Assembly (NCBI GenBank): GCA_029565065.1
Contig: JAKQOW010000036.1
Location: 59,846 to 123,845 of the forward strand
DNA length: 64,000 bases
Reading direction: 5' to 3'
DNA from: Acidobacteriota bacterium
GTDB taxonomy: Bacteria; Acidobacteriota; JAAYUB01
Position numbers and translations under genes: made by a program
Notes under the pieces: generated by a model
What the model was told of the DNA's origin: nothing
What the model saw: the letters and a program-made list of their open reading frames with translations, nothing else
Databases searched by the model: none
Shown here: positions 31,720 to 54,394 of the stretch, one piece after another
Numbering within the stretch: position 1 is the first letter of the stretch
How the letters are laid out: every line of letters begins with the position of its first letter

Positions 31720-34700
31720 ATGAGCCAGACGACCGCCCAGCCATCGCGGCGTTCGAACGGTAGCCGGCCGGAACACGGCCCGAGCGCCCGTCTGCGGCTC
31801 GCGGGCGGCCGCCTCGGCGGGGCCGTGCTGCTCGCCCTGGTCCTCGCCGCCGCACCGGCGGCCCTCGATCCGGACAAGCTGATCACCCAGTACTCCCGCC
31901 GCGTGTGGAACATCGAGAGCGGGCTGCCGCAGAACTCGGTGAACGTCATCGTCCAGGACCGCCAGGGCTACCTGTGGCTGGCCACCCAGGAGGGGATGGC
32001 GCGGTTCGACGGCGCCGGCTTCAGCGTCTACGACAAGCTCACCACCCGGGCTCTGACCACCAACAACATCCGGACGCTCCTGGTGGACCGGGCCGGCACG
32101 CTGTGGGCGGGCACCAACAGCGGCGGGCTGCTCCGCTTCAAGGACGGCCGCTTCCGCGTGTTCACCACCCGCGACGGGCTGGCGTTCGACATCGTCACCG
32201 CCCTGGCGGAGGGGCCGGACGGCTCCATCTGGATCGGCACCTACGGCGGCGGCCTGAGCTGCCTGCGCGGGGATCGGTTCCGCACCTACACCACCCGCGA
32301 CGGCCTGGCTCACAACAGCATCCTGAGCCTGCTCGCCGACGCCGACGGCACACTCTGGATCGGCACCAATGGCGCCGGGATCGGCCGCCTGCGCGACGGC
32401 GTGTTTGATCGGCTGGACGAGCGGCACGGCCTGCCCAACCCCGTCGTGTACTGCCTGACGCGCGGCCGCGACGGCACGCTCTGGGCGGGCACCTACGGCG
32501 GCGGGCTGGCCCGCCTGGACGGCGACCGCTTCGCCGTGATCACCACCCGCGACGGCCTGTCCAGCAACCGGATCCTGGGGGTGTTCGAGGACCGGGCCGG
32601 CAACCTGTGGGTGGGCACGTTCGGCGGCGGTGTGTGCCGGCGGGCCCGCGGGCGCTGGTCCGTCTTTTCCCGGGCGGAGGGGCTGCCGTACGAGGTGGCG
32701 CGGGCGTTCTGCGAGGACCGCGAAGGGAACCTCTGGATCGGCACCGACGGCGGCGGGCTCGTCCGGCTGGCCGACGGCAGCTTCACCACCTCCAGCGTCG
32801 CCGAGGGACTCTCCAGCGCGTACATCATCGGGGTGCTAGAGGCACGCGGCGGCGACATCTGGATCGGCACCAACGGCGGGGGGCTGAATCGCCTTCGCGG
32901 CGAGCGGATCGAGCACCTGGACGTGCGCCACGGCTTTCCCCACGACCTGATCCGCTCCATGTGGGAGGCGCCCGACGGCGATCTCTGGGTGGGCACCGAC
33001 GGCGGCGGCCTGGTCCGCCTGCGCGACGGCCGGGTGGCGGCGCACGTCACGCGGCGCGAGGGGCTGTCCGGTGACCGGGTCATCAGCGTGTTGGGTGACC
33101 GCCGCGGCGTCATCTGGGCCGGCACCAACGGCGCCGGGCTCAACCGCCTGGAGGGCGGGCGCATCACCACGTTCTCGCGCCGCGCCGGCCGGCTGGCCGA
33201 CATGGTCAACCTGCTGTACGAGGACCGGTCGGGCCGGCTCTGGGTGGGCACCTACGGCGGGTTGTGGCAGTTTCGCGACGGCGAGTTCGTCGGCTTTCCC
33301 GGCCAGGAGGAGGTGGGCAACGCCATCGTCACCGACATTCATGAGGACGAGCGGGGCGTGCTCTGGCTCGGCACCATCGGCGCGGGCCTCCTGCGGCTGG
33401 AGGCGGGGCGGGTGGTGCGGATCGCCCGCGAGCACGGACTCTATGACGACATCGCCTATGAGGTGGCCGACGACGGCCGGGGCAGCCTGTGGATGAGCTG
33501 CAACCGCGGCGTCTACCGGGCGGCCATCGCCGACCTGGAAGCCTTCGCCGCCGGACGGAGCCCCCGGGTGACCTGCGTGGCCTACGGCAGCGCCGACGGC
33601 ATGAAGACCGCCGAGTGCAACGGCGGCTTTCAACCGTCGGGGGCGCGCACCCGCGACGGCCGCATCTGGTTCCCCACGTCCGACGGCGTGGCGGTGGTGG
33701 ACCCGGGCAAGATCCAGGTCAACCGGACGCCGCCGCCGGTGTTCGTGGAGCGGGTGATGGTCAACGGCCGGCTCGCGCCGGCCGGCGAGCGGCTGGTGCT
33801 CCCGCCGGGCCGGCACGACCTCGAGTTCCACTACACCGGACTGTCGCTGGTGGCGCCGGAGAAAGTCCTGTTCCGGTACCGGCTGGATGGGTACGACATC
33901 GCCTGGCGTGATGCCGGCAACCGGCGGATCGCCTACTACACCAACCTCCCGCCCGGTGAATTCAATTTTCACGTCATCGCCTGCAACAACGACGGTGTCT
34001 GGAACGAGCGCGGGGATCGCGTGGCGATGATCCAGCATCCGCGGCTCTGGCAGACCCCCTGGTTCCCGTTCCTCGTCGGCGGACTGGTGGTCCTGGCGGG
34101 CGCCGGCGCGGCGTGGGGACGGGAGCGGCGGCTCAAGACCCGGCAGCGGGAACTGGAACTGCTCGTGGACGAGCGGACGGCCCAGTTGCGATCGGCCAAC
34201 GAGCGGCTGGCGCGGCTATCCACCGAGGACCCGCTCACCGGCCTGGCCAACCGGCGCCGGTTCGACGACCACCTTGGCGCCCTGTGGCGGCAATACGCCC
34301 GGGTGCAGTCGCCCCTGGCACTGGTGATGGTGGACTTGGACGGCTTCAAGGATTTCAACGACCACTACGGCCACCCCGCCGGCGACGCCTGCCTGGTGCA
34401 GGTGGCCGGGGTGCTGGCCGCCGGCGCCAAGCGGGCCGGCGACCTGGTGGCGCGCTACGGCGGCGAGGAGTTCGTCCTGGTGCTGGCCGGGTCGGACGCC
34501 GCCGGCGCGGCCGGACTGGCCGAGGGGCTCAGGGCCGAGGTGGAGCGGCTGGCGATTCCCCACGAGCACGCCCCGCACGGCCGGATCCACGTGAGCATCA
34601 GCCTCGGCGTAGCCGCCGCGCGACCTGAGATCGGCGCGCCCTGGCGCGGGCTGGTGGCCCGCGCCGACGCCGCTCTGTACCGGGCCAAGGCGCGCGGCCG

Positions 34701-34755
34701 CAACCGGGTGGAGGTGGAAGGGGAGACCCAGGACGGTGCCGGACCCGCAGTTTGA
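31720..34755 (+). CDS. Diguanylate cyclase with periplasmic two-component-regulator beta-propeller repeats and Y_Y_Y domain, TM, GGDEF
   Basis: Repeated GT/LW(I)GT..GGL propeller motifs; Y_Y_Y-like region; TM (WFPFLVGGLVVLAGAGAAW); GGDEF core RYGGEEFVLVL. Confidence 0.85.
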   Translation: MSQTTAQPSRRSNGSRPEHGPSARLRLAGGRLGGAVLLALVLAAAPAALDPDKLITQYSRRVWNIESGLPQNSVNVIVQDRQGYLWLATQEGMARFDGAGFSVYDKLTTRALTTNNIRTLLVDRAGTLWAGTNSGGLLRFKDGRFRVFTTRDGLAFDIVTALAEGPDGSIWIGTYGGGLSCLRGDRFRTYTTRDGLAHNSILSLLADADGTLWIGTNGAGIGRLRDGVFDRLDERHGLPNPVVYCLTRGRDGTLWAGTYGGGLARLDGDRFAVITTRDGLSSNRILGVFEDRAGNLWVGTFGGGVCRRARGRWSVFSRAEGLPYEVARAFCEDREGNLWIGTDGGGLVRLADGSFTTSSVAEGLSSAYIIGVLEARGGDIWIGTNGGGLNRLRGERIEHLDVRHGFPHDLIRSMWEAPDGDLWVGTDGGGLVRLRDGRVAAHVTRREGLSGDRVISVLGDRRGVIWAGTNGAGLNRLEGGRITTFSRRAGRLADMVNLLYEDRSGRLWVGTYGGLWQFRDGEFVGFPGQEEVGNAIVTDIHEDERGVLWLGTIGAGLLRLEAGRVVRIAREHGLYDDIAYEVADDGRGSLWMSCNRGVYRAAIADLEAFAAGRSPRVTCVAYGSADGMKTAECNGGFQPSGARTRDGRIWFPTSDGVAVVDPGKIQVNRTPPPVFVERVMVNGRLAPAGERLVLPPGRHDLEFHYTGLSLVAPEKVLFRYRLDGYDIAWRDAGNRRIAYYTNLPPGEFNFHVIACNNDGVWNERGDRVAMIQHPRLWQTPWFPFLVGGLVVLAGAGAAWGRERRLKTRQRELELLVDERTAQLRSANERLARLSTEDPLTGLANRRRFDDHLGALWRQYARVQSPLALVMVDLDGFKDFNDHYGHPAGDACLVQVAGVLAAGAKRAGDLVARYGGEEFVLVLAGSDAAGAAGLAEGLRAEVERLAIPHEHAPHGRIHVSISLGVAAARPEIGAPWRGLVARADAALYRAKARGRNRVEVEGETQDGAGPAV

Positions 34756-34835
34756 TTTCCAAATCCCCGAATCACCGCAGTGGACACGGAGTCCACACGG
34801 GGAACCATTTGTCATTGGTCATCTGACATTTTTCA

Positions 34836-34892
34836 TTGGGCATTTCGGATTATTGGTTATTGGTGATTGCTAATATTTTATTGGCTATTTGG
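34836..34892. repeat. AT-rich degenerate heptamer block (TNATTGG)n
   Basis: gtcattgg...ttcattgg...attattgg ttattgg tgattgc...ttattgg c tatttgg seen directly. Confidence 0.5.
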
Positions 34893-34911
34893 AGACGAGT
34901 CCGTTCTTGCG

Positions 34912-35072
34912 GTTGATGGTTGATAGTTGATCGTTGATCGTGGGGAGCAGCTCCAAGATCCGAACCGCGAACCCCGAACCGCGAGACCCGATCTCCGAAG
35001 TCCGATTTCCGTGTCCGATTTCCGATGTCCGATGTCCGCACGGTGCGAGCGAGCCCTCAGCCTTTGCCTCGA
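34912..35072 (+). repeat. Composite ~160-bp repeat, copy A: (GTTGATN)4 - (CCGAAC-like)n - (GTCCGAT)n - GAGCC..CTCAGCC tail
   Basis: Same module order and orientation as copy B at 36410-36575. Confidence 0.7.
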
Positions 35073-35073
35073 T

Positions 35074-36207
35074 CTAAGGCGCGTTCCCCAGCGTCGAGCC
35101 TTCCCGTCGGTGATAACGCGAGAAGGCGATCCACGCTTTTTTCCCATCAAGCAGATAATGCACTTTCAACGTTTCCTGGCCTCTCTCGGGCTTGAAGGTG
35201 TGCTCGATGACGGCATCGACCCATATGCCCGGTTCCCGGTACCGGAAAGTGAAGAACTGGCCGTAATAATTGCCCGAAGCATCGCGCTGGTCGGCGAATT
35301 TCAGGAAGACGATCCCCTTGTGGTAACCCACGTAATAATCCGGAACGTGATCGTCATATTTTCGGGCGACGTAATATCCCCCTTCCCTGGAGATGACGGT
35401 CAAACCCTCCCGCCAGCTGCCGGTCAGGTCATTTGGAATGGTTGGCGGACTCGATGGCGGCGGATCGACGCGCTGGGTTGCGGCCAAGGTTCCCTTCGTC
35501 GCGGGCGAATCGAAGCCCGGTTCCAGGTTTAGACTGGCCAGCCGGACATCGTTTTCCAGGGTCCGGATCATTGCGTTGAATTCCCCAGTGGTTTTCAGGT
35601 TCGGAACATTCAGATTGTTCGCCTGAGCCTCGGTGAGAAAGGAACAGCCGAGCGAACCGCGCACCATTGTTCCCATGCTGAGGGCCTGATTGATTCCGCT
35701 TCTGGCCATCTCCAGGCGAATACTTTCCCCCACCTGGGTGGCGGCGACGGCCTGGCCGCTGTGGAATCCGAGATCGGCGACATATGTGTCGCAGGTGGAA
35801 AAGTTTTGGATGCCCTGATCGGACCTGAAGACCGTCGACATCGCCGTTTTCAAATTGGAGTGGCATCCCTCCAGATAAGCCATCTTCTGCCGGTTGTTCA
35901 TGCTGTCCGTCGCCTGGGGGAAGCGCCGCAGCAAGTCAACGATCCGGCGGATCTGGCCGGAATCGAAAGGGGGATCGAAGTACTGGTCGGCGAGCTGGTT
36001 CAGCATGGTGATGGCCGTGTTGATGTAGAGGTTGATGGAATTGGAATTTTCGGGAGTGATTCCCTGGTATTCGATGATCAGTGCGGTCATGCCGATGTTG
36101 CCCGCCGCGTTGAACACCAGGCGCTGGCGCTCGTTGGCTTTCAGTTGCTGGCCGCCCAGCCAAAGCAACAGGCAGGACACGATGAACAGGGCGGACCTGT
36201 TTCTCAT
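35074..36207 (-). CDS. Hypothetical secreted protein (377 aa), lower GC than surroundings
   Basis: Signal peptide MRNRSALFIVSCLLLWLGGQQLKA from ATG complement 36205-36207; visibly AT-richer codon usage; flanked by the two composite direct repeats. Confidence 0.6.
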   Translation of the reverse strand: MRNRSALFIVSCLLLWLGGQQLKANERQRLVFNAAGNIGMTALIIEYQGITPENSNSINLYINTAITMLNQLADQYFDPPFDSGQIRRIVDLLRRFPQATDSMNNRQKMAYLEGCHSNLKTAMSTVFRSDQGIQNFSTCDTYVADLGFHSGQAVAATQVGESIRLEMARSGINQALSMGTMVRGSLGCSFLTEAQANNLNVPNLKTTGEFNAMIRTLENDVRLASLNLEPGFDSPATKGTLAATQRVDPPPSSPPTIPNDLTGSWREGLTVISREGGYYVARKYDDHVPDYYVGYHKGIVFLKFADQRDASGNYYGQFFTFRYREPGIWVDAVIEHTFKPERGQETLKVHYLLDGKKAWIAFSRYHRREGSTLGNAP

Positions 36208-36346: not shown

Positions 36347-36409
36347 ATCTAGAGCGGGTTTTGGGAGCCGGGAACAAGGACCCAGCACCGAGGATCCAGG
36401 TCCGAGATA

Positions 36410-36575
36410 GTTGATGGTTGATCGTTGATGGTTGATCGTTGGGAGCGAGCCCCGAATCCCGAACCCCGAGCCCCGAACTCCGAGCCCCGAACCCCGAAGT
36501 CCGATGTCCGATGTCCGAACTCCGCAAGACGTGAACGAGCCTCCAGCCTCGAGCCTCGAGCCTCGATTCGGATGC
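36410..36575 (+). repeat. Composite ~160-bp repeat, copy B (direct repeat of 34912-35072)
   Basis: gttgatggttgatcgttgatggttgatcgtt - cccgaatcccgaaccccgagccccgaac... - gtccgatgtccgatgtccg - cgagcctccagcctcgagcctcgagcctcga. Confidence 0.7.
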
Positions 36576-41592: not shown

Positions 41593-41616
41593 GTGAGTGG
41601 GTGAATCGGGAGGAGC

Positions 41617-41658
41617 AAACAGTGAACAGTAAACAGTAAACAGTAGACAGTGAATAGT
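41617..41658. repeat. Tandem heptamer array (RAACAGT) x6
   Basis: aaacagt gaacagt aaacagt aaacagt agacagt gaatagt. Confidence 0.7.
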
Positions 41659-41673
41659 GGGGAAAATTGGTAA

Positions 41674-41720
41674 ATCGGGCAGAGGGATCCGCCGGGACCC
41701 TCTGCCCGATTCATTTCTTG
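41674..41720 (+). terminator. Hairpin downstream of prolyl oligopeptidase gene (possible terminator)
   Basis: 13-bp stem ATCGGGCAGAGGG / CCCTCTGCCCGAT with 11-nt loop, then TCATTTCTTG. Confidence 0.45.
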
Positions 41721-41809
41721 CACCTGGAACCTGCGAACCTGAGAACCTGCGGACCTGCGACCTGGAACCTGCGAACCTGGAACCTGAGAACCTGGAACCT
41801 GTGAACCTG
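41721..41809. repeat. Tandem 7/8-mer array (N)GAACCTG x~12
   Basis: cacctg gaacctg cgaacctg agaacctg cggacctg cgacctg gaacctg cgaacctg gaacctg agaacctg gaacctg tgaacctg. Confidence 0.75.
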
Positions 41810-41942
41810 AGAATCGGTGAACGATGACAGGCACGATCGCCCGGCGGGCAGGCGGGAGGTACCGCGACCGGGAGGGAGCGGCGCGAAAGCCCACCCCGCG
41901 AAACCAGGGGAGCCCGCGACACCATTCCATCGCCCGCGGCAG

Positions 41943-41981
41943 CGAGTTTCACGGCGCCCGTCCGGCGGACGGGCGCTACTG
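41943..41981 (+). repeat. 39-bp direct repeat copy 1 (contains 9-bp-stem palindrome GCCCGTCCG-GC-GGACGGGC)
   Basis: cgagtttcacggcgcccgtccggcggacgggcgctactg; 38/39 identical to copy at 42121. Confidence 0.7.
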
Positions 41982-42120
41982 TGCCGTAGACTGCGTCACA
42001 GCGAACAGTAGGCCGCACGCCCGCCGGGCGCGGCCCGTCCCCAAGGCACGATTAAGCGATTCGCTCACAGGTTCGAGTCGCAGCGCGGCAAGGACGGATC
42101 AGACTCCCGCCACTTCTTGC

Positions 42121-42159
42121 CGAGTGTCACGGCGCCCGTCCGGCGGACGGGCGCTACTG
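42121..42159 (+). repeat. 39-bp direct repeat copy 2
   Basis: cgagtgtcacggcgcccgtccggcggacgggcgctactg. Confidence 0.7.
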
Positions 42160-42186
42160 CCATTGTGAGGCAACGCGATCGGGGAC

Positions 42187-42215
42187 TTGACAACTGTCAC
42201 GTGACACATTACACT
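42187..42215 (+). promoter_or_regulatory. higBA promoter-like TTGACA-17-TACACT with embedded 12-bp palindrome TGTCACGTGACA (candidate HigA operator)
   Basis: Seen directly; palindrome spans 42195-42206 between -35 and -10 elements. Confidence 0.55.
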
Positions 42216-42221
42216 TGAGGC

Positions 42222-42503
42222 GTGATCAAGAGCTTCGTTGACAAGCATACGGCGGAACTGTTCACGACCGGCCGGTCCAGGCGATTGCCGCCAGACATGG
42301 TGCGTCGGGCGAGAAGAAAGCTCGAGTCCGTCGATCTGGCCGCGCGTCTGGATGACCTTCGGGTTCCTCCGGGCAATCGCCTCCACAAACTCGGCGGAGA
42401 CCGGGAAGGACAGCATGCGATCACCATCAACGACCAGTGGCGCATCTGCTTCCGGTTCGTGGAGGGCGCTGCCTACGATGTTGAAGTGACGGATTATCAC
42501 TGA
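42222..42503 (+). CDS. higB: HigB toxin (RelE/ParE superfamily mRNA interferase)
   Basis: GTG start; product MIKSFVDKHTAELF...LHKLGGDREGQHAITINDQWRICFRFVEGAAYDVEVTDYH closely parallels plasmid/Vibrio HigB (MIKSF..., KLHPLKGDREGYWSI..., ...DYH). Confidence 0.85.
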   Translation: MIKSFVDKHTAELFTTGRSRRLPPDMVRRARRKLESVDLAARLDDLRVPPGNRLHKLGGDREGQHAITINDQWRICFRFVEGAAYDVEVTDYH

Positions 42504-42516
42504 AGCGAGGTGCGGG

Positions 42517-42831
42517 ATGAGCATCCTGAACACGAGACGGAAGATCGTTCGCCCCATCCACCCGGGGGAGATACTTCGGGAGGACTTCCTGCCTGACTAT
42601 GGCCTGACGGCTTCCGGTCTCGCGGCGGCGCTGGGCGTTTCGCGACAGACCGTGAATGAGCTGCTGCGCGAGCGTCGGTCGGTCAGCCCGGAGATGGCGC
42701 TCCGGCTTTCGCGTCTGTTTGGCAACTCCCCCGAGTTCTGGCTGAATGCTCAGCGTACGGTCGACCTCTGGGATGCAGCCCAATCTATCGGACGGGAGGT
42801 CGAGCGGATCAAGCCTTTGTCTGTGGCCTGA
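42517..42831 (+). CDS. higA: HigA antitoxin (XRE-family HTH)
   Basis: IHPGEILREDFL and HTH LAAALGVSRQTVNELLRERRSVSPEMALRLSRLFGNSPEFWLNAQ, typical HigA. Confidence 0.85.
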   Translation: MSILNTRRKIVRPIHPGEILREDFLPDYGLTASGLAAALGVSRQTVNELLRERRSVSPEMALRLSRLFGNSPEFWLNAQRTVDLWDAAQSIGREVERIKPLSVA

Positions 42832-42906
42832 CAACGACTTGCAGCGGATGGTCCACTGCGCGGCCCGCCGCTGAACCGGAGCGTTAGGCGGCTTACGACA
42901 TCATCA

Positions 42907-43848
42907 TTGCGGAGTATCGATTTGGAAGAAAAAACTGAAATTACGACCTTGCTTGAGAGAATTGCGATCGCGCTTGAGCGAATAGCAGACTTGCTTGCCA
43001 GACCAGACCAATCAGAAGATTCGTCTGGTCTGGTTGATTCAGAACCTCCTATTGCTCCCGAACCAACAGAACCTGCGCCTTCTACCAACGATATTACCTG
43101 GCTGCGGGACTTTCTTGCTTCACGGGGGATTTCAATAAAGACCATTCCTCAGGAGCAAGAGAGCGATGAAACTCTCGACAAGATAGCCTTGTTCATTGGG
43201 AACAGGCTAGAATCAGTCAATAGTGTTCTCGATTCCATCAAGGCGAATATGAATGTTGGGAGACCGTTCAGTCTGAATCTGAGAAACGAGTCCCAACAAA
43301 CCGTTGCAGATACAACCAATCTGTGTACAAATCTCTATAACATCGCCTTTCTTACAGCATACTACTATCAGAAATCCCCAGCCTATCAGCTTTATGCAAC
43401 CCCAAGCACATCGCCCAGAGCATTGAATTTTTATTCCGGACAATGGTTGGAGCGATTCATCAAGATCCAAGCCGTCTCGCTACTCAGAAGCAAATCGCTT
43501 GAATTCTCCTATATCTGCAATGCTCAAATTTCATTGCCAAAGGGGGATGATTTTGAACTGGATATGTTGTTTGAGGCAGAGGGAGAAGTGTTCTGGCTAG
43601 AAGCGAAAACTGGTGATTATAGAAGGCATATCGAAAAATATTCCAAGATGTCCAAGACTTTAGGTCTAGACCGCTCACATACCTTTATGATATTGGCGGA
43701 TGGCTCGGTAACTGACGCTCTGGCGCGCGACTTGGGTAATTTGTTTGGAATGACTGTGGCAAGGGTTGAGAAATTTGCAGAGCAATTGACCAAAGTGCTA
43801 CCCAAAAACCGCAATGAGACAGTTCAAGGTCGAGAAATATCACCATGA
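42907..43848 (+). CDS. Hypothetical low-GC protein with C-terminal PD-(D/E)xK nuclease-like motif
   Basis: No in-frame ATG near start (TTG/alternative start); Pro-rich linker; GDDFELDMLFEAEGEVFWLEAKTG fits D...E-x-K restriction-endonuclease-like core; GC well below genome average. Confidence 0.5.
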   Translation: MRSIDLEEKTEITTLLERIAIALERIADLLARPDQSEDSSGLVDSEPPIAPEPTEPAPSTNDITWLRDFLASRGISIKTIPQEQESDETLDKIALFIGNRLESVNSVLDSIKANMNVGRPFSLNLRNESQQTVADTTNLCTNLYNIAFLTAYYYQKSPAYQLYATPSTSPRALNFYSGQWLERFIKIQAVSLLRSKSLEFSYICNAQISLPKGDDFELDMLFEAEGEVFWLEAKTGDYRRHIEKYSKMSKTLGLDRSHTFMILADGSVTDALARDLGNLFGMTVARVEKFAEQLTKVLPKNRNETVQGREISP

Positions 43849-43965
43849 CCAGACGCCCAACAAGCGCTTGCAGCGGACGCTCGCTACGCTCGCAGCGCTG
43901 AAGCGCCAGCCGTTAGCCCGAAAGAGATTCGGGGCGACATGAGGACCAATGTGATATGAGTAAGG

Positions 43966-45432
43966 ATGACCATGTTTGAACAAGCTTTCAAGAATATTGA
44001 CGATGTGCTTTGGAAGGATGCCGGGTGTACCAGTGAACTGGATTACACCGAGCAGACTTCCTGGCTGCTATTCCTGAAATACCTCGATGCACTGGAGGCC
44101 GACCGTGCCACGGCTGCCGCCCTGAACGGCAAGACCTACACCCACATTCTGGATAAACCATACCGCTGGGGCTCCTGGGCCGCGCCGAGGGGCAAGGATG
44201 GCTCGATTGACCACAACACCGCTCTAACCGGCGACGACCTGATCCAGTTCGTCAACGGCAAGCTTTTCCCTTACCTGCACGGCTTCAAGCAGAAGGCTAG
44301 CGGGCCGAACACGGTCGAATACAAGATCGGCGAGATTTTCGGCGAGATCAAGAACCGCATCCAGAGCGGCTACAACCTACGCGAGGTCATTGACCAAATT
44401 GATGAACTGCGCTTCGCGTCGCAAGTTGAGAAGCACGAGCTTTCGCACCTGTACGAGGCGAAGATCAAGAACATGGGCAACGCCGGGCGCAACGGCGGCG
44501 AGTATTACACCCCGCGCCCGCTCATCCGCGCCATCGTGGCGGTGGTCGCGCCCAAGCTCGGCGAGACCATCTGCGACCCGGCGGTCGGCTCGGCGGGCTT
44601 CCTGTGCGAGGCATTCGAATATCTCAAGGCTCAGAACCCGAAGCGCACCACCGCCCAGGACCGCGCCTTGCAGGAGCGCACCTTCTTCGGCAAGGAAAAG
44701 AAGTCGCTGGCCTACGTCATCGCGATCATGAACATGATCCTGCACGGCATCGAGGCGCCCAACATCCTCCACGTCAACACGCTGGCCGAGAACCTGGCCG
44801 ACGTGCAGGAAAAGGACCGATTCGACATCATCCTCGCCAATCCGCCTTTTGGCGGCAAGGAGCGCAAGGAGGTCCAGCAGAACTTCCCAATTCGCACCGG
44901 TGAAACGGCTTTTCTCTTCCTCCAGCACTTCATCAAGGTACTCAAGGCCGGCGGCCGGGCGGGGATCGTCATCAAGAATACGTTTCTGAGCAACACCGAC
45001 AATGCCTCCGTAAGCCTGCGGCGGAAACTGCTGGAGGAATGCAACCTGCATACCGTGCTCGACTGCCCCGGCGGCACGTTCCAGGGCGCGGGCGTGAAGA
45101 CCGTGGTGCTGTTTTTCGAGAAGGGCGCGAAGACCAGGAAGGTGTGGTACTACCAACTCGACCCCGGCCGCAGCCTCGGCAAGACCAACCCGCTCAATGA
45201 TGACGACCTCGCCGAGTTCGTGCAGCTCCAGAAGACCTTCGCCGACTCACCCAAGAGCTGGAGCGTTGACGCCAATTATATTGATCCGACCACTTTCGAC
45301 CTCTCCGTGAAGAACCCCAACGGCGGCGAGACCGTGACCCACCGCAGTCCGCAGGAGATCATGGAAGAAATCGCCGTCCTAGACATCGAAAGCGCTGAGG
45401 TGCTGGAGAAGATCAGGGGGCTGCTGAAATGA
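43966..45432 (+). CDS. hsdM: Type I restriction-modification system, DNA methyltransferase subunit M (N6-adenine)
   Basis: HsdM N-domain; SAM-binding DPAVGSAGFL; catalytic NPPFG motif. Confidence 0.9.
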   Translation: MTMFEQAFKNIDDVLWKDAGCTSELDYTEQTSWLLFLKYLDALEADRATAAALNGKTYTHILDKPYRWGSWAAPRGKDGSIDHNTALTGDDLIQFVNGKLFPYLHGFKQKASGPNTVEYKIGEIFGEIKNRIQSGYNLREVIDQIDELRFASQVEKHELSHLYEAKIKNMGNAGRNGGEYYTPRPLIRAIVAVVAPKLGETICDPAVGSAGFLCEAFEYLKAQNPKRTTAQDRALQERTFFGKEKKSLAYVIAIMNMILHGIEAPNILHVNTLAENLADVQEKDRFDIILANPPFGGKERKEVQQNFPIRTGETAFLFLQHFIKVLKAGGRAGIVIKNTFLSNTDNASVSLRRKLLEECNLHTVLDCPGGTFQGAGVKTVVLFFEKGAKTRKVWYYQLDPGRSLGKTNPLNDDDLAEFVQLQKTFADSPKSWSVDANYIDPTTFDLSVKNPNGGETVTHRSPQEIMEEIAVLDIESAEVLEKIRGLLK

Positions 45433-46571
45433 AGAAGGGGTGGGAAACGAGGCGTATCGATGAGCTTTGCATAGTGGTCGCCGGGCAATCGCCGGAGGGG
45501 AAGTTCTATAACTCCGAGGGTCGGGGCCTTCCGTTCTATCAAGGTAAAAAGGACTTTGGGGAAAAGTTCATCGAGGCACCCACCACTTGGACAACGCAGA
45601 CGACCAAGATTGCCAAACAGGGCGATATCTTGATGTCCGTCCGCGCACCTGTTGGCCCTGTGAATTTTTCCACCGAGGAAATCTGCATTGGGCGCGGATT
45701 AGCTGCGATACGCTGCGGGACACAACTGAATCGAGATTTTCTTTTCTACCAGTTGCTCCACTTACAGCCTGAGATTGCTGGGAAAGAAGGCGCAGTGTTC
45801 GCATCAATCAACAAATCCGAAATCGAAGCCTTGCCGCTCGCGTTTACCCCGCTCCCCGAACAGCAGCGGATCGTGGGGGTATTGGATGAAACTTTTGCTG
45901 GTCTGGCCACCGCCCAAGCCAACGCCGAAAAGAACCTCCTGAACGCCCGCGCCCTATTCGAAAGCCACATGAATGACGTGTTCAGCAAGCGGGGCGAAGG
46001 GTGGGTGGAGAAGACGTTGGGGAAAATCGGCAAGGTCTCCATGTGCAAGAGAATCTTCAAGGAGGAGACGACAGCGACCGGAGACATTCCATTCTACAAG
46101 ATTGGGACTTTCGGAAAAGAGCCCGATGCATTCATTTCAAGCCAAACCTACAATGAATACAGGGCGAGATACCCCTTTCCTAAAAAAGGCGATATTCTTA
46201 TCTCGGCGTCGGGAACAATCGGGCGACGCGTCAGATACGACGGTGAACCCGCATATTTTCAGGACTCGAATATCGTCTGGATTGATAACGATGAAAGACA
46301 GGTGTCGAACGACTACCTGTATCACTTCTACGGAGCCTGTGAGTGGAACTCGACGAAAGGCGCTACCATATCGCGACTCTACAATGACAATCTGAGGCAA
46401 ATCGCTATTGCATTCCCTGAATCGAGTCAGGAGCAGCGGCGGATTGTCACCCAACTCGACTCCCTCTCCGCCGAAACCCGCCGCTTGGCCGCCATCTACG
46501 AGCGGAAGCTGGCGGCGCTGGAGACGCTGAAGAAATCGCTTCTACATCAGGCGTTTAACGGAGAACTGTGA
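45429..46571 (+). CDS. hsdS: Type I restriction-modification system, specificity subunit S
   Basis: Overlaps hsdM by ATGA; two target-recognition domains separated by a conserved central helix (LPEQQRIVGVLDETFAGLATAQANAEKN) and C-terminal helix (QEQRRIVTQLDSLSAETRRLAAIYERK). Confidence 0.85.
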   Translation: MKKGWETRRIDELCIVVAGQSPEGKFYNSEGRGLPFYQGKKDFGEKFIEAPTTWTTQTTKIAKQGDILMSVRAPVGPVNFSTEEICIGRGLAAIRCGTQLNRDFLFYQLLHLQPEIAGKEGAVFASINKSEIEALPLAFTPLPEQQRIVGVLDETFAGLATAQANAEKNLLNARALFESHMNDVFSKRGEGWVEKTLGKIGKVSMCKRIFKEETTATGDIPFYKIGTFGKEPDAFISSQTYNEYRARYPFPKKGDILISASGTIGRRVRYDGEPAYFQDSNIVWIDNDERQVSNDYLYHFYGACEWNSTKGATISRLYNDNLRQIAIAFPESSQEQRRIVTQLDSLSAETRRLAAIYERKLAALETLKKSLLHQAFNGEL

Positions 46572-46572
46572 C

Positions 46573-47496
46573 ATGAAAAGCTACTACCGAGTCATGTTGG
46601 GTGAAAAGAGCAAGTATGCCGAGGAGTGTTTTGCAGCGAACTGCATTGCCGCCGGCTTCATCCCTGATCAGAACTTGAAAGGAAAGTTGCCCGATCAATG
46701 GCGCACCTTCAATAAACAGTTTATTCCCGTGTTCCTCGCCGCTCATCCGGAGAAAACAAAAATCGGTGCAGGGCTAGCTTGTGGCGCGTTGTGGACGGTA
46801 TGCAAAGGGATGCAAAATGGCGATATAGTCTTATGTCCTGACGGCACGGGCAGATACCGGGCCGGTGAAATCAGTGGCGATTACTTTTATGAGCCCAGCA
46901 AGCACTTGTGCCATAGACGGCCTGTGACTTGGCTGAACGTGATGATTGACCGGGCCACGATGAGTGAGCCGCTGCGCAAATCCACCGGTTCAATCGGCAC
47001 GGTGAGCAACATCACGCTGCACCGCGATGAAATTGAAAAGCACACCGGCGGCGTTTCAACTCCGAAACTAATTTCCACCGACACCACAGTTGAGGACGCC
47101 TCTGCTTTCGCATTAGAAGAGCATTTGGAGGATTTCCTCGTCAAAAATTGGTCTCACACCGAACTCGGCAAAGATTACACAATTTACGAGGAGGACGGAG
47201 AGAAAGCACAGCAATACCAGACCGACACAGGACCGTTGGACATCCTCGCGATCAGCAAGGACAAAAAACATCTGTTGGTTGTGGAGTTGAAAAAGGGACG
47301 GGCCAGTGATCTGGTGGTCGGACAGACTCTCCGCTACATGAGCTTCGTCCAGGATGAATTGGCTGAGGAGGGACAGACAGTGCGGGGGTTGATAATCGCT
47401 CACGAGGACGATCAAAAAATCCGGCGCGCCCTCAGCATGACACCCAACATTTCCTTCTATCGCTACCAAGTCAGTTTCAAGTTAATGAAGGGATGA
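46573..47496 (+). CDS. Embedded cassette gene A: hypothetical protein with C-terminal PD-(D/E)xK (NucS/Mrr-cat-like) nuclease motif
   Basis: GPLDILAISKDKKHLLVVELKKGRASDLVVGQTLRYMSF ... VRGLIIAHEDD fits D-x(n)-E-L-K nuclease core; N-terminal ~150-aa domain of unknown function; starts 2 nt after hsdS stop. Confidence 0.6.
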   Translation: MKSYYRVMLGEKSKYAEECFAANCIAAGFIPDQNLKGKLPDQWRTFNKQFIPVFLAAHPEKTKIGAGLACGALWTVCKGMQNGDIVLCPDGTGRYRAGEISGDYFYEPSKHLCHRRPVTWLNVMIDRATMSEPLRKSTGSIGTVSNITLHRDEIEKHTGGVSTPKLISTDTTVEDASAFALEEHLEDFLVKNWSHTELGKDYTIYEEDGEKAQQYQTDTGPLDILAISKDKKHLLVVELKKGRASDLVVGQTLRYMSFVQDELAEEGQTVRGLIIAHEDDQKIRRALSMTPNISFYRYQVSFKLMKG

Positions 47497-47497
47497 C

Positions 47498-47593
47498 ATG
47501 AACGAAGCTGAAACGAGAGCCGAGCATATTGATCCCGCGCTGGCGGCGTTGAAGAAGTCGCTGCTGCTCCTGGCCTTTGCAGGAGAACTGTGA
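47498..47593 (+). pseudogene. Chimeric remnant: 51-nt hsdR 5' fragment (MNEAETRAEHIDPALAA) fused to 45-nt hsdS 3' fragment (LKKSLLLLAFAGEL-stop)
   Basis: 47498-47548 is 47/51 nt identical (all 4 differences synonymous) to hsdR start at 48391-48441. 47549-47593 parallels the hsdS 3' end at 46527-46571 (LKKSLLHQAFNGEL-stop). Confidence 0.8.
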
Positions 47594-48375
47594 TGAATAT
47601 GAAGAAATACTGCTACGACACAGAACCGATAGCCGGAATTGAGAAGCTGTGTGAGCGAATGACGGGGAAGGCGTTACAGTCTCCGTATCGTTCCACTGTG
47701 CCTTTACTGAGCCTCGTTGAACACAGTCAGCCTGAATGGCATTCGCTATTGGCGTCGTTGGGGACGCCGCCTGACCGAACGGTCCACTTTGAATACTGCA
47801 TCGCCTCGCCAAAGCCTGGAGGAAATCCGTCACAGACAGACGCCCTGCTGATGTCAGATTCAACTGTGTGGGCCGTTGAGGCGAAGTGGACAGAACCTCG
47901 GTATGAAACAGTGGCGAAAAGAATAAGCAAACCAGAGTCGGACGGCGCTGATCCGCGAACCACGGTTGATGGCTGGCTGAAATATCTCCAGCCGTTTACA
48001 ACACGAGATTTGCGCGTCGATGACTTTTTGGATGTGGTATATCAAGTATTGCATCGCGCCGCATCGGCGTGTGCTGTCGCAACCGATCTGCAACTCTCGC
48101 CGCACCTTGTGTATCTGCATTTTCATCCATCCCCGCTGGAGAGTTCCGCGACGACCGATCAGTATGTCTCGGACCTTCAGCATCTATATGCGTTGCTCGG
48201 CAATCCCTCCACCCTGAAGATCACCGTGGTTGAAATGCCGCTCAAGCCGACTGCGGAATTTGATGCCATCAAGGGTCTGGATAAGCGAGATCCAGGATCT
48301 GCCGCTGTGGTGAAAGCGGCGCTGTGCAAAGAGCCATTATTTACTTTCGGAAGCCCGATCATTACGCGATCATGA
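47593..48375 (+). CDS. Embedded cassette gene B: hypothetical protein with PD-(D/E)xK restriction-endonuclease-like core
   Basis: HFEYCIASPKPGGNPSQTDALLMSDSTVWAVEAKWTE contains E...D...E-A-K pattern; start overlaps remnant stop (TGATG). Confidence 0.55.
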   Translation: MNMKKYCYDTEPIAGIEKLCERMTGKALQSPYRSTVPLLSLVEHSQPEWHSLLASLGTPPDRTVHFEYCIASPKPGGNPSQTDALLMSDSTVWAVEAKWTEPRYETVAKRISKPESDGADPRTTVDGWLKYLQPFTTRDLRVDDFLDVVYQVLHRAASACAVATDLQLSPHLVYLHFHPSPLESSATTDQYVSDLQHLYALLGNPSTLKITVVEMPLKPTAEFDAIKGLDKRDPGSAAVVKAALCKEPLFTFGSPIITRS

Positions 48376-48390
48376 GGTCAGATCTCACGC

Positions 48391-50718
48391 ATGAACGAAG
48401 CCGAAACCAGAGCCGAGCACATTGACCCCGCGCTGGCGGCGGCGGGCTGGGGCGTCGTGGAGGGCAGCCGCGTGAGGCGGGAGTTTCCCATCACGCCGGG
48501 GCGCATCGAGGGGCTGGGCCGGCGCGGAAAGCCGCTGACCGCCGATTACGTTCTGGAATACCGCAACCGCAAACTGGCCGTAATCGAGGCCAAGGCGTGG
48601 GATCAAGAGTTGACCGAAGGAGTGGCGCAGGGCAAGAACTACGCGGGCAAGCTGCAGGTGCGCTTTGTCTATGCCACAAACGGGCGGGGCATCTACGCGA
48701 TAGACATGCAGACGGGCAAGGAAGGCGAGATCGCCGCCTACCCAACCCCGGACGAACTCTGGGCGATGACCTTTGCCGAGGAGAACGCCTGGCGGGACCG
48801 GTTCGCGGCGGTGCCGTACGAGGACAAGGGCGGCTCGCATCCGACGCGTTACTACCAGGACATCGCCATCGAGCGGGTGATGCAGGCCATTTCGGAGAAC
48901 CGGACGCGCATCCTGCTGACGCTGGCCACCGGAACGGGGAAAACCTTCATCGCATTCCAGATCGCGTGGAAGCTGTTCCATGCGCGCTGGAACCTCTCCC
49001 GCGAACCGACGCGCCGGCCGCGCATCCTGTTCTTGGCCGACCGGAACATCCTGGCGAACCAGGCTTACAACGCCTTCTCCGCCTTCCCCGAGGACGCGCT
49101 GGTGCGGATCGAGCCGGGCGACATCCGCAAGAAAGGCAAGGTGCCGAAGAACGGCAGCCTGTTTTTCACCATCTTCCAGACGTTCATGAGTGGTCCGCCC
49201 AAGGACGGCCGACCGTCACCCTATTTCGGCGAATACCCGCCGGACTTCTTCGACTTTATCGTGATTGATGAGTGCCATCGCGGCGGGGCGAACGACGAGA
49301 GCACCTGGCGTGGCATCCTGGACTACTTCGCGCCCGCCGTGCAGCTCGGCCTCACCGCCACACCCAAGCGCGATGAGAACGTGAACACCTACCGCTATTT
49401 CGGCGAGCCGGTCTATATGTATTCGCTCAAGGACGGGATCAACGACGGCTTCCTGACCCCGTTCAAGGTGAAGCAGATCCAGACCACGCTGGACGAGTAC
49501 GTGTACACGCCGGACGACACGGTGATCGAAGGCGAGATCGAGGAGGGCAAGCGGTACGAAGAGGCGGACTTCAACCGCATCATCGAGATCAGGAAACGCG
49601 AGGAATACCGGGTCAGAATCTTCATGGATCTGATCAACCAGAACGAGAAGACGCTGGTGTTCTGCGCGAACCAGGCCCACGCCCTGGCCGTGCGCGACCT
49701 CGTCAACCAGCTGAAGACCAGCAAGGACCCGAACTACTGCCAGCGGGTGACGGCGAACGACGGTGAGCTGGGCGAGCAGCATTTGCGCGACTTCCAGGAC
49801 AACGAGAAGACGATCCCGATGGTCCTGACCACGTCACAGAAGCTCTCGACGGGGGTGGACGCTCGGAACATCCGCAACATCGTCCTGATGCGGCCCATCA
49901 ACCGGCTCATCGAGTTCAAACAGATCATCGGGCGCGGCACCCGGCTCTATGACGGCAAAGATTACTTCACGATCTACGACTTCGTGAATGCGCACGAGCA
50001 TTTCAGCGATTCTGGGTGGGACGGCGAGCCGATGGCCCCGGAACCGCACGAGATCTATCCGCCGCACGAACCGAGCCTGGCAGGCGAAGTGCGGGAACCC
50101 AGGGAGAAATATCCAAAACGCCAGCGGGTGAAAGTGAAACTGGCGGACGGCAAGGAGCGCACCATCCAGCACATGATGATGACGAGCTTCTGGCATCCCG
50201 ACGGCACGCCCATGTCCGCGCAGCAGTTCATGGAACTGCTCTTCGGAAAGCTCCCGTACTTCTTCAAGGACGAAGCCGAACTCCGGGCCATTTGGAGTGC
50301 GCCTGACACGCGCAAAAAGTTATTGCAGGGCTTGGCCGAGAAGGGCTTCGGGCATGACCAACTGGCTGAGATGCAGACGATCATCGACGCCGAGAAGAGC
50401 GATCTGTTCGACGTGCTCGCCCATGTTGCCTACGCCTTGCCGCCCGTCACGCGTGAAGTCCGCGCCGCGAATGCGAGAGTTCACATCAATACCCGTTTCA
50501 GCGACAAGCAGAAGGTGTTCCTCGATTTCGTGCTCCAGCATTACATCACGGTCGGCGTGGAAGAGCTCGATCAAGAAAAGCTTACCCCGCTGCTCCTGCT
50601 CAAGTACCACAATTCCCTGGCGGATGCCGTTGCCGACCTGGGCGGCCGGCCCGAAGAGATAAGCAAAGCCTTCGCCGGGTTCCAGAAATATCTCTATCAG
50701 CAAACGTCTGCGGCATGA
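48391..50718 (+). CDS. hsdR: Type I restriction enzyme, R subunit (nuclease plus SF2 helicase)
   Basis: N-terminal nuclease motif LAVIEAKAW; Walker A LATGTGKT; DEAH-like VIDECHR; motif VI QIIGRGTRL. Confidence 0.9.
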   Translation: MNEAETRAEHIDPALAAAGWGVVEGSRVRREFPITPGRIEGLGRRGKPLTADYVLEYRNRKLAVIEAKAWDQELTEGVAQGKNYAGKLQVRFVYATNGRGIYAIDMQTGKEGEIAAYPTPDELWAMTFAEENAWRDRFAAVPYEDKGGSHPTRYYQDIAIERVMQAISENRTRILLTLATGTGKTFIAFQIAWKLFHARWNLSREPTRRPRILFLADRNILANQAYNAFSAFPEDALVRIEPGDIRKKGKVPKNGSLFFTIFQTFMSGPPKDGRPSPYFGEYPPDFFDFIVIDECHRGGANDESTWRGILDYFAPAVQLGLTATPKRDENVNTYRYFGEPVYMYSLKDGINDGFLTPFKVKQIQTTLDEYVYTPDDTVIEGEIEEGKRYEEADFNRIIEIRKREEYRVRIFMDLINQNEKTLVFCANQAHALAVRDLVNQLKTSKDPNYCQRVTANDGELGEQHLRDFQDNEKTIPMVLTTSQKLSTGVDARNIRNIVLMRPINRLIEFKQIIGRGTRLYDGKDYFTIYDFVNAHEHFSDSGWDGEPMAPEPHEIYPPHEPSLAGEVREPREKYPKRQRVKVKLADGKERTIQHMMMTSFWHPDGTPMSAQQFMELLFGKLPYFFKDEAELRAIWSAPDTRKKLLQGLAEKGFGHDQLAEMQTIIDAEKSDLFDVLAHVAYALPPVTREVRAANARVHINTRFSDKQKVFLDFVLQHYITVGVEELDQEKLTPLLLLKYHNSLADAVADLGGRPEEISKAFAGFQKYLYQQTSAA

Positions 50719-50790
50719 TAGGTGCGAGAAGATAATAGGTTAACAAACAGTTACAGCGGACGGCTCGCAGCGCGGCCCTCCGCTTAACCG

Positions 50791-51522
50791 ATGGATGAGT
50801 GTTCAGATGGGAAAGGAATGATAACAAAGTGGCTACATATCAGTGAACTGGGGGGCGATCCCTGGATTTTGCCGATCTGGACGGCTGTGAATGAAGCTGT
50901 GAAATCTGGTAAAGCCACCGATCTTCAGCCCGAAGTGTACCGTCTTGGATTACACGTCTCACTACGACTGAATATCTTGCCTCGGGTAGTCAAACGGGTG
51001 AATTCCAACACATTGCTCTTGTATAGAATCATCAGAGAACACGGACCCGAGTATGTTTCGACTGAAGCAATTAGGGGATACGCATTTCCTGTCGATGATG
51101 ATCTGAAGTACTCATTGTTAGCTGATATCGATGCCCTGCTCTTTGAACTCAATTCGGTTTGTGAACTTATGAAGAATCTTTTTGGGTTATTGCAGGCGCA
51201 TATTGGCCGGCCGATACATAAAGATAAGATTGGCAAAGCTTTAAATGATGTACTTTCTCAAAGTACCCGGAATGCAAATTGGTTTGCAATGTTGGATGAG
51301 CATAGAAATTTTTTTATGCACAATGGTGCTCCGTACATAGCCGTGGATCTTTCGAATGAGCCGGTGGAATTGGAAATTCTGATTATGAAAGAAAATATAA
51401 AGAGCTTTACAGATCCAGCAAAATTCGTTTCACTTTCGCAGATCAATTCTATTGTCCAAGGGTTTATAGATTCGAAACAAAAGCTGCAAGACTATTTGAT
51501 ATCACTCTTCAAACAGGAGTAA
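50791..51522 (+). CDS. Hypothetical AT-rich protein with Rx4H (HEPN-like) motif, downstream of hsdR
   Basis: Lowest GC in the window; EHRNFFMHNG contains R-x4-H; alternative start ATG 50818 with AAAGGA RBS. Confidence 0.45.
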   Translation: MDECSDGKGMITKWLHISELGGDPWILPIWTAVNEAVKSGKATDLQPEVYRLGLHVSLRLNILPRVVKRVNSNTLLLYRIIREHGPEYVSTEAIRGYAFPVDDDLKYSLLADIDALLFELNSVCELMKNLFGLLQAHIGRPIHKDKIGKALNDVLSQSTRNANWFAMLDEHRNFFMHNGAPYIAVDLSNEPVELEILIMKENIKSFTDPAKFVSLSQINSIVQGFIDSKQKLQDYLISLFKQE

Positions 51523-51541
51523 GCGCGAACCAGCAAATCCA

Positions 51542-52213
51542 GTGAACAGCTTTCAAATCCACCAGACCACGCGCCGCGTGGCGGTTGATTCTCGGCGTTT
51601 GAAGGCAGCTGCAGATATCATGTCTGACAACAAGCTTATTCTTCATCCCATCGATCCCATGGCAAGCCTACCGTCGGTGTCCGCGGTACGGATCCGCCTC
51701 TCTGAGATTGGTCTCATCGGGCCGCCCATCGAGTATTACGGAAAGACACATTATCTTCAGGGTCCGCGATTTGAAGCGCTCGTGCCGTTCGCCCATTCGC
51801 ATCGGTCCGTAGTCCTCACTTCAATTGATCCCACCTTCTTCACACCACGCATCACCGACAGTCGCAGCATCGTTTCCATAGAAATCTGCCAACCGACCGA
51901 CGCTATCGAATTTCTTGGGGCGGGCAACGTAGAAAGCCCCTGCTGTCCCTCGTGTGACTTCGAGATCAAGGATTGGGCGGCCTTGGTCTCGACGTGGTGT
52001 AACAACAAATGCACATACCAGTGGACTTGTCCGGGTTGTCAGCGCAGCTGGAGACCCTGGCATCTCGATTGGCGCGGCACGAACGGTTTTGGTCGCTTCG
52101 CCATTGCCTTCTGGAACGTCCATCAAAGCGAAGCCATACCCAGCCAGGAACTTCTAGAGGTTGTTCACGAAGTCTGCGGCACGCCGTGGACCTTCTTCTA
52201 CTATCGGCTTTAG
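51542..52213 (+). CDS. Hypothetical protein with C-terminal Cys-rich (zinc-binding-like) region
   Basis: CCPSCDF...CNNKCTYQWTCPGCQRSW; start uncertain (51542 or 51620). Confidence 0.4.
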   Translation: MNSFQIHQTTRRVAVDSRRLKAAADIMSDNKLILHPIDPMASLPSVSAVRIRLSEIGLIGPPIEYYGKTHYLQGPRFEALVPFAHSHRSVVLTSIDPTFFTPRITDSRSIVSIEICQPTDAIEFLGAGNVESPCCPSCDFEIKDWAALVSTWCNNKCTYQWTCPGCQRSWRPWHLDWRGTNGFGRFAIAFWNVHQSEAIPSQELLEVVHEVCGTPWTFFYYRL

Positions 52214-52669
52214 GTCCTGCAATATGTTCCAGGCATGCAGTGAACTGCCACTGTTGACTGGCAGAAGGTCGTATTTATGGAACCCATGCAATTCAATACT
52301 ATCGCGGTCAGAACGACTTCGTCGTGATGCTATCAATGTGAGCCGGCGGTTGCTGAGAGACGCTGACGGAGTGGCGTGTCATCTCAGGTGAGGCGCCGCG
52401 AGGACCCCTCCCGCGTCGACGCCGCTACCACTCCAACAACAGTCGTCTTCGCAGTAATGGTTGGGAAGATGCAGTGCGGGTTGACACGGATGGGTTCAGA
52501 TGGTAAAGGACGATAACGATATGGCCATACCTGATTTTGGGAGTGCGATCTGTACACGTCTGATGTTTTGAGCTGACTGTAAGGATCACGCCGACCATGA
52601 GGCGCCCGACGCACTCGCTCTTGGAGCAACCTACCTGAGGATGGATTAAAGACGTGATGGAGACATGAC

Positions 52670-53200
52670 ATGCGCAAGGAGTACGGGAAAGCGCTCCGGC
52701 AGTATTTCGCCAAGCAGATGAAGGAGCGACTCCCGGAATTCAAAGAGGAGACGGTGCAGTCCGTGTACCTGTGGCCCGGGCAGCGGGCGTTCGGCCGGTC
52801 CGTCTCCGGTTCGCTGAAGTGCTGGATCGTGCTCAGCCCCAGCCCCAAGGACTACGACGAGTTCACGGTCCTGATCGGATGGTCGACGTGGGGGCGCTAT
52901 CCGGAGCTATCGGTGATCCCGTCCATCCAATCGCCGTCGCCGGACCGGGCGGAGTTCAGCCAGCCGGAGTACCTCACGCGACTCCCGCAGCTCTGGACCC
53001 AGCGGGACGAATGGTGGGTGATTCAGAAGTTCGAGCCGGCGCTCACCGTGGAGCAGATGACGGCCCGGATGGCGCCCATCCCGGCGCCGGCGGCCGAGGC
53101 GAAAGTGATCCCTCGCGTGGACGACGCCATCGACCAGGTGATCAAGATCGGCATCCCTTATCTTTCCGAGTTCGTCAACACAAGGGAAGGAAGCGAATGA
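52670..53200 (+). CDS. Hypothetical protein (176 aa)
   Basis: High-GC ORF with consistent codon usage; no recognisable motif. Confidence 0.45.
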   Translation: MRKEYGKALRQYFAKQMKERLPEFKEETVQSVYLWPGQRAFGRSVSGSLKCWIVLSPSPKDYDEFTVLIGWSTWGRYPELSVIPSIQSPSPDRAEFSQPEYLTRLPQLWTQRDEWWVIQKFEPALTVEQMTARMAPIPAPAAEAKVIPRVDDAIDQVIKIGIPYLSEFVNTREGSE

Positions 53201-54354: not shown

Positions 54355-54394
54355 ACGCCCGATGCGTGCACAACCTCACTTCCGAGGAGGCGAC

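Follow-up and report, generated by a model that had tools for sequence, protein, structure and literature searches.

A predicted Can2-type nuclease without a CARF domain on a probable integron gene cassette of an Acidobacteriota genome

The nuclease Can2 consists of a CARF domain spanning residues 3-151 plus a nuclease domain (residues 166-366) with an extra four-helix, two-strand motif (PMC7969007). Integron gene cassettes are documented as carriers of phage-defence genes (bioRxiv 10.1101/2024.07.02.601719; PMC12614218). BRiCs are small, mostly single-gene integron cassettes of formerly unknown function, one of which encodes a putative dimeric restriction endonuclease; the text of the paper describing them mentions no Card1-like or CARF protein (bioRxiv 10.1101/2024.07.02.601719). 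Here we describe a gene in a 64,000-nucleotide stretch (the window) of contig JAKQOW010000036.1, from a metagenome-assembled genome (MAG) of an Acidobacteriota bacterium. We read it, with a probability of about 0.8, as an integron cassette encoding a Can2-type nuclease. The original prediction, made from the letters of the window, had pointed to a low-GC open reading frame (ORF) between higA and hsdM, and this holds: HigB and HigA are encoded upstream and HsdM downstream of an ORF with a GC content of 0.449 against about 0.68 in the flanks (left flank 0.68).

GC content at third codon positions (GC3) is 0.447 in this ORF and 0.94 in the neighbouring peptidase gene (HOB51118.1); the whole 1029-bp cassette has a GC content of 0.466. 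The low GC of the cassette points to a recent arrival, as judged from composition, from a lower-GC donor, and its closest copies are found in Anaerolineae and Caldilineae. The ORF is annotated as HOB51121.1, "hypothetical protein". Its first in-frame ATG does not occur before codon 115, so a TTG or GTG start, as had been called for, is needed; the start conserved among homologues is the second TTG, at 42922, rather than the beginning of the ORF at 42907. Most close homologues are likewise 308 amino acids long.

Sites were scored with a covariance model for attC, R1, which we built from ten sites in the window and related loci and ran with filters off. It is based on alignment A2; a MAFFT alignment, A3, was dropped because its right arms were misaligned. 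The features that define the element are as follows.

42907-43848, plus strand: ORF of the nuclease gene, 313 codons, between HigB/HigA upstream and HsdM downstream
42922-43848, plus strand: coding sequence, 308 amino acids, TTG start, with GGAG at 42911-42914, 7 bases before the start
42838-42850: first 13-mer, CTTGCAGCGGATG, within attC site A
43867-43879: second 13-mer, CTTGCAGCGGACG, within attC site B
42826-42889, plus strand: attC site A, 64 nt, R1 score 74.5 bits, E = 1e-15
43855-43918, plus strand: attC site B, the cassette's own, 64 nt, R1 score 67.2 bits, E = 6e-14
50738-50800, plus strand: attC-like site C, after hsdR, atypical, R1 score 62.8 bits, E = 7e-13
42884-43912, plus strand: very probable gene cassette, 1029 bp, which begins with the TT of the site A R' box and ends with the G of the site B R' box

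Both 13-mers had been reported earlier, the second one base too far along (43868-43880). The pair is identical at 12 of 13 positions, and with one mismatch or fewer there is no other match in 64 kb. Taken bare, the pair is weak evidence, as 0.40 matches are expected and two or more matches occurred in 6 of 100 shuffled sequences. Each 13-mer, however, is the L'' arm, including an extrahelical G, of a 64-nt imperfect palindrome. The repeats, first suggested to be target-site duplications or recombination scars, are instead the L'' arms of a consecutive pair of integron attC sites.

Site A reads GCCTGAC-AACGA-CTT(G)CAGCGG-loop-CCGCTGAA-CCGGAGC-GTTAGGC, in which TT(G)CAGCGG pairs with CCGCTGAA and the R' box lies at 42883-42889. 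Its R'' box GCCTGAC includes the higA stop codon, which is created by the change of AAC to GAC. Site B reads GCCCAAC-AA-GCGCTT(G)CAGCG-loop-CGCTGAAGCGC-CAGCC-GTTAGCC, with GCGCTT(G)CAGCG pairing with CGCTGAAGCGC, the R'' box GCCCAAC beginning 6 nt past the stop codon of the nuclease gene and the R' box at 43912-43918; its bottom strand folds to a hairpin with a single bulge. Site C shows 77% identity to site A over 48 nt. It has the R'' box GGTTAAC and good L'' and L' arms, followed by a degenerate R' (GATGAGT) that overlaps an ATG at 50791. Overall, the boxes agree with the attC consensus sequences RYYYAAC and GTTRRRY, with deviations in A, B and C, and sites A and B are imperfect palindromes with an extrahelical base, of a length within the range of about 55-140 nt.

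Across the window, R1 gives significant scores to A, B and C only, all on the plus strand; the next, unrelated match has E = 0.12. In an alignment of 17 sites, paired cells make up 88.7% and six pairs are altered on both sides, figures biased towards structure by the fitting of that alignment to R1. Fold energies of sites A and B are no better than those of shuffled sequences (z about 0), so the case for attC rests on conservation, box anatomy and context rather than stability. Three simpler searches were set aside. A hand-written scanner combining box consensus and stem score was unselective, with 6 matches in the window against 0-10 in shuffled sequences, and missed site A; a stricter version recovered no more than 5 of 81 gene-proximal sites; and a strict regular expression matched just 4. 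The covariance model replaced both scanners.

The ends of the mobile unit were located by comparison with other genomes. Homology in blastn to an Anaerolinea MAG (L005, 86.5% nucleotide identity) and an Anaerolineae MAG (L002, 80%) starts at 42883, the G of GTTAGGC; upstream of it the window has nothing in common with either of them, the neighbouring genes being different. All close copies have GCCCAAC 6 bases past the stop codon. The onset of homology and the position of this box together place the unit at 42884-43912, with cuts between G and TT (G/TT) at 42883/42884 and 43912/43913; a unit with these bounds thus recurs next to other neighbours. The element has the structural features of an integron cassette, and we consider the gene very likely to be one. 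A transposon or insertion sequence, with the 13-mers as target-site duplications or scars, could account for near-identical direct repeats on either side of a low-GC gene. The repeats, however, are imperfect and embedded in longer homologous hairpin sites. The homology boundary lies 33 nt past the first 13-mer, which leaves the first outside the mobile unit and the second inside it; neither a transposase ORF nor terminal inverted repeats occur in the unit. The same type of site also forms arrays beside integron integrases. We regard such an insertion as barely credible.

The same cassette is second in an array of Candidatus Caldilinea saccharophila (L007) that begins beside a divergent integrase with a TIGR02249 score of 430.6 bits, against a cutoff of 265. 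R1 matches outside the training set flank distant homologues (about 40% identity) in an Anaerolinea thermophila MAG (L030), Sterolibacterium (L042) and a Gloeomargaritales cyanobacterium (L029). In these three, the ORF extends into the attC site, so that it is the R'' box that encodes the "AQQG" C-terminal tails of many homologues. When metagenomes were scanned with the L''/L' motif of site A alone, at least 120 contigs came back, and in many of them R1 matches form arrays on one strand. Two contigs found only in this way, L150 and L144, encode integron integrases at 486.6 and 436 bits. In L144 (9800-14085), L150 (119-2433) and L124, the integrase is co-oriented with the attC sites and upstream of them, an inverted-integrase layout, while that of L007 is divergent.

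The sites might otherwise be species-specific hairpins at gene ends, either repetitive extragenic palindromic (REP)-like elements or terminators, with the ORF as a native accessory gene of the higBA or restriction-modification (R-M) operon. Hairpins do stand at the 3' ends of higA, the nuclease ORF and hsdR, other dispersed hairpin repeats occur in this genome (e.g. 41943-41981 and 42121-42159), and the nuclease ORF follows HigA in 16 of 16 contigs with identical HigA. Against this, the attC-type site has three copies only in 64 kb, all within one island, and no terminator-type T-run was found. In Chloroflexota, Betaproteobacteria and Cyanobacteria, homologous genes are flanked by the same type of site, which also adjoins IntI, and every other context of the nuclease ORF lacks R-M or HigBA genes. 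The difference in GC3 between the ORF and the host gene also speaks against a native gene. We judge this explanation very improbable; the evidence contradicts both it and the reading of the 13-mers as a transposon target-site duplication.

Several observations weigh against an integron cassette with a Can2-type nuclease. The window has no detectable integron integrase or other tyrosine recombinase (best tblastn E = 3.5), and the association of attC with an integrase is seen instead in the relatives L007, L150 and L144. The R' box of site B (GTTAGCC) and the R'' box of site A (GCCTGAC) depart from consensus by one base apiece, a good R' is missing from site C, and the extrahelical base of A and B is C on the bottom strand, where G is usual. 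An empty site, with higA directly followed by hsdM, had been proposed as a check; none was found among the 16 contigs with identical HigA, all of which carry the ORF, and the only absence seen is that of the whole island. Mobility is shown instead by the occurrence of the cassette in other integron contexts; at this locus, with no integrase in the window, the cassette may or may not be mobile today. Among 82 genomic loci of the family, only about 12 have an R'' heptamer at the gene end (background 2%), and the Roseiflexaceae gene has housekeeping genes around it (ABC transporter, glycosidase). From these two results the family, as far as its genomic sequences tell, is found both inside and outside integrons and is not confined to integrons or defence islands. 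Finally, a Pfam search with the window protein gave no match at E of 1 or below, under every threshold. One strain with identical HigA (L091, 6907-7332) has only a 141-amino-acid 3' part of the nuclease gene called, which could reflect a frameshift, gene decay or an assembly error.

Since no integrase was detected, the locus is classed as an integrase-less attC cluster (CALIN-like) within a strain-variable island, not as a complete integron. It shares with integron cassettes a single ORF that has no promoter of its own, an imperfect palindrome of about 64 nt behind it, the R'' and R' boxes, the extrahelical L'' base and the G/TT boundary. Toxin-antitoxin units are typical of chromosomal integron arrays, and the array in the window has one as well. 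The locus differs from the usual integron in having only three sites and no integrase in 64 kb, with the third site 6.8 kb from the second; the 6.9-kb multigene R-M unit between sites B and C is far bigger than a usual cassette; and the host is an Acidobacteriota MAG. The cassette resembles BRiCs (bioRxiv 10.1101/2024.07.02.601719) in being small and single-gene, with homologues outside integrons too. BRiCs, however, come from mobile integrons of clinical Gammaproteobacteria and were tested against phage.

The AlphaFold model of the 308-residue protein (pLDDT 88.5) shows a helix at residues 3-26, a disordered proline-rich linker at 27-58, the stretch noticed earlier, and an alpha/beta region at 59-300 predicted to be a Can2/VC1899-type PD-(D/E)xK nuclease domain. 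The C-terminal segment singled out in the original prediction, GDDFELDMLFEAEGEVFWLEAKTG, is present in the ORF, and the suspected PD-(D/E)xK core appears both in the model, as a Can2-type fold with D...ExK, and in a match of the family profile to structure 8z4i (E = 7e-6) in which D and ExK are aligned. The catalytic codons are those of E177 (43450-43452), D214 (43561-43563), E227 (43600-43602) and K229 (43606-43608). These four residues, together with R13 in the N-terminal helix (LLERIAxALERIA), are invariant in an alignment of 61 sequences. We assign the Can2-type nuclease fold with high confidence.

By the domain limits of Can2, the roughly 200 aligned residues amount to its entire nuclease domain, and nothing matches CARF. 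A CARF-like reading of residues 55-165 was rejected: the region modelled alone shows no CARF, and the Can2 domain limits disagree. The product is thus a predicted metal-dependent nuclease of the Can2/Card1/VC1899 type, with the domain of about 200 residues and its E-D-ExK residues intact. Like Can2 and Card1, it has a C-terminal PD-(D/E)xK domain of the Can2 type with D...ExK; unlike Can2, Card1 and VC1899 (DUF1887, PF09002 Card1_endonuc), it has no CARF domain and no recognisable cyclic-oligoadenylate (cOA) pocket, residues 1-58, a conserved amphipathic helix and the proline-rich linker, standing in place of CARF. PF09002 matches only below threshold, in 32 of 61 homologues (best E = 1.5e-4), and the locus has HigBA and a type I R-M system as neighbours rather than the CRISPR neighbourhood in which Can2 and Card1 of type III systems are found. 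With no CARF, a sub-threshold PF09002 score and no CRISPR context, the protein falls outside the Can2/Card1 family as defined, although it resembles the nuclease half of those proteins. Searches of NCBIfam and PHROGs with the protein gave no match, and a library of viral structures gave only PD-(D/E)xK matches of low TM-score (template modelling score). Similarity to solitary PD-(D/E)xK restriction endonucleases (type II/IV: NgoMIV, PfoI, Mrr-like) is far weaker than to Can2, and the cassette has no cognate methyltransferase.

Eighty homologues cover about 95% of the length of the protein. An exhaustive profile search found at least 1116 representative clusters at 50% identity, 543 of them at E of 1e-30 or below, with a conserved core at about residues 55-300 and a patchy distribution over more than ten phyla. 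Three members (P0176, P0207 and P0223, 1311-1369 residues) contain four tandem copies of a nuclease module of about 245 residues, and others have N- or C-terminal extensions of 170-320 residues with no assigned domain. Ten longer members were searched against Pfam for fused domains, and a zinc ribbon was found in one only. Cyanobacterial members carry an extra, largely hydrophobic N-terminal segment that could span the membrane.

The nuclease might be carried by a cassette and still not act autonomously, being activated in trans, like Can2 and Card1, when a type III CRISPR or CBASS system at another place in the genome produces a nucleotide signal. Its closest structures are all cOA-activated CARF nucleases, and its best PADLOC matches are CARF_PDDEXK models, aligned only from profile position 132 of 364. 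Among 84 loci, within 6 kb on either side, no recurring partner family was found except the synteny in Roseiflexaceae, Cas10 not having been searched for by name. We consider activation in trans improbable.

The wider neighbourhood of the cassette contains these features.

42187-42215, plus strand: sigma-70-like promoter of higBA (TTGACA, 17 nt, TACACT), by consensus match only
42222-42503, plus strand: higB (Pfam HigB-like_toxin, E = 2e-17)
42517-42831, plus strand: higA (Pfam HTH_3, E = 5e-10); the higBA unit, 42222-42831, ends in site A
43966-50718, plus strand: type I R-M block between attC sites B and C, with hsdM, hsdS, the PDC-S02/NucS_C gene, the DUF6946 gene and hsdR
46573-47496, plus strand: PDC-S02 gene between hsdS and hsdR (PADLOC candidate defence family, E = 4e-147)
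47590-48375, plus strand: DUF6946 gene (Pfam) within the R-M block
41600-55186, no strand: strain-variable island, 13.6 kb, between a conserved prolyl oligopeptidase gene and the katG region

The following origin and mode of action are proposed. An integron integrase would have captured the cassette in a lower-GC donor lineage, and an integrase would have placed it, promoterless, between the higBA unit and the type I R-M block through site-specific recombination. It may have reached the Acidobacteriota genome singly or within a fragment of an array, since the GTTGCAGCGGACG…CCGCTGAAC type is common to sites A and C and the Caldilinea attC. The cassette would owe its transcription to read-through from the higBA promoter. 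This is the sole promoter-like site upstream of it, one site found where 1.5 are expected, and no terminator-like site with a T-run was found between the two; a palindrome, TGTCACGTGACA, lies between the promoter hexamers. The product would be a dimeric metal-dependent nuclease that works alone, with its N-terminal helix perhaps serving oligomerisation or autoinhibition in place of CARF control.

We tentatively suggest, as a nearly balanced possibility, a stand-alone role in defence against phage or other mobile DNA, because its neighbours are a toxin-antitoxin module, a type I R-M system, PDC-S02 and DUF6946, because the island varies among strains, and because defence cassettes are documented. 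Alternatively, the cassette might encode an active nuclease with another role, such as DNA repair or recombination or a toxin-like addiction that stabilises the array, or be a decaying passenger. The synteny with housekeeping genes in Roseiflexaceae, the lone remnant called in L091 and the lack of any match to validated defence models beyond weak domain similarity are in favour of such roles. They fit less well with the patchy spread over more than ten phyla, the sharing of a strain-variable island with toxin-antitoxin, type I R-M and PDC-S02 genes, the family-wide invariance of the catalytic residues and the record of integron cassettes as carriers of defence genes (bioRxiv 10.1101/2024.07.02.601719; PMC12614218). 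We hold these roles to be possible but rather unlikely.

The locus presents a mobile unit of a familiar kind, whose cargo is a known nuclease in a new architectural form, and a puzzling pair of short repeats is explained by a defined mechanism, the capture of integron cassettes. An attC cluster in an Acidobacteriota genome, with a cassette type common with Chloroflexota integrons, is evidence for traffic of cassettes between phyla. The cargo belongs to a widespread protein family without a Pfam model, which has the full Can2/Card1 nuclease module and lacks the usual restraining sensor. How a Can2-type nuclease is restrained without CARF is the question this raises, and the invariant N-terminal helix is the obvious candidate. 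If the nuclease is an autonomous defence protein, the catalogue gains a compact system made of one gene. Should the 6.9-kb R-M block be a genuine cassette (site C is without a good R', and the strain homology break is off G/TT), it extends the size and complexity of the units that integrons can move. It is doubtful, though conceivable, that this is the founding example of an unnamed CARF-less Can2-type family of autonomous anti-phage or anti-plasmid effectors, spread across phyla on cassettes and controlled by the helix, next to an R-M system whose two accessory nuclease genes travel with it as a 6.9-kb cassette between attC sites B and C.

Related strains have either the whole island or none of it. 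Homology to L084, L085 and L088 ends at 41593-41599, and that to L084 and L085 restarts at 55187; in place of the island, L084 and L085 have B12-binding, FtsX and ABC genes and L088 has other genes. Strain L001 has higBA, the cassette and the R-M block in common with the window and diverges from 50786, inside site C, with other genes after it. This break (L001 site at 7840-7903) falls right after L', not at the canonical G/TT crossover.

In PADLOC, the R-M block matches MTase_I (E = 1e-164), Specificity_I (E = 1e-92) and REase_I (E = 1e-137). The PDC-S02 gene has a C-terminus of the NucS_C PD-(D/E)xK type and is present in L001 too. L001 lacks 47549-48390, so recombination with a different type I R-M locus seems to have brought the DUF6946 gene in between hsdR and the PDC-S02 gene. 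In the segment 47497-47593, just before the DUF6946 gene, a 52-nt copy of the 5' end of hsdR (92% identical to 48390-48441) and a 57-nt copy of the 3' end of hsdS (77% identical to 46515-46571) are fused at GCGCTGGCGGCG. Part of hsdS (45470-45847) has no homology to L001, while the remaining R-M block is about 90-92% identical; this suggests a swapped target-recognition domain and hence, judging by divergence, a probable difference in specificity.

Two low-GC ORFs (GC 0.48) directly follow site C, 50791-51522 (243 amino acids) and 51542-52213 (223 amino acids). Neither has a match in Pfam, NCBIfam, PADLOC or PHROGs, and no attC was detected after them.

At the other end of the island, tandem heptamers follow the peptidase gene (41617-41651 and 41722-41809; AAACAGT five times and about twelve units resembling ACCTGGA). 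A 39-nt unit holding the palindrome GCGCCCGTCCGGCGGACGGGCGC occurs in two copies, at 41943-41981 and 42121-42159. With related copies at 34769-35017 and 36404-36567 and in L088, these sequences are a dispersed, species-specific repeat. A second strain-variable segment, 31625-35075, is absent from L084 and L085 and holds the gene of a 1011-residue Reg_prop/Y_Y_Y/GGDEF diguanylate cyclase (31720-34755).
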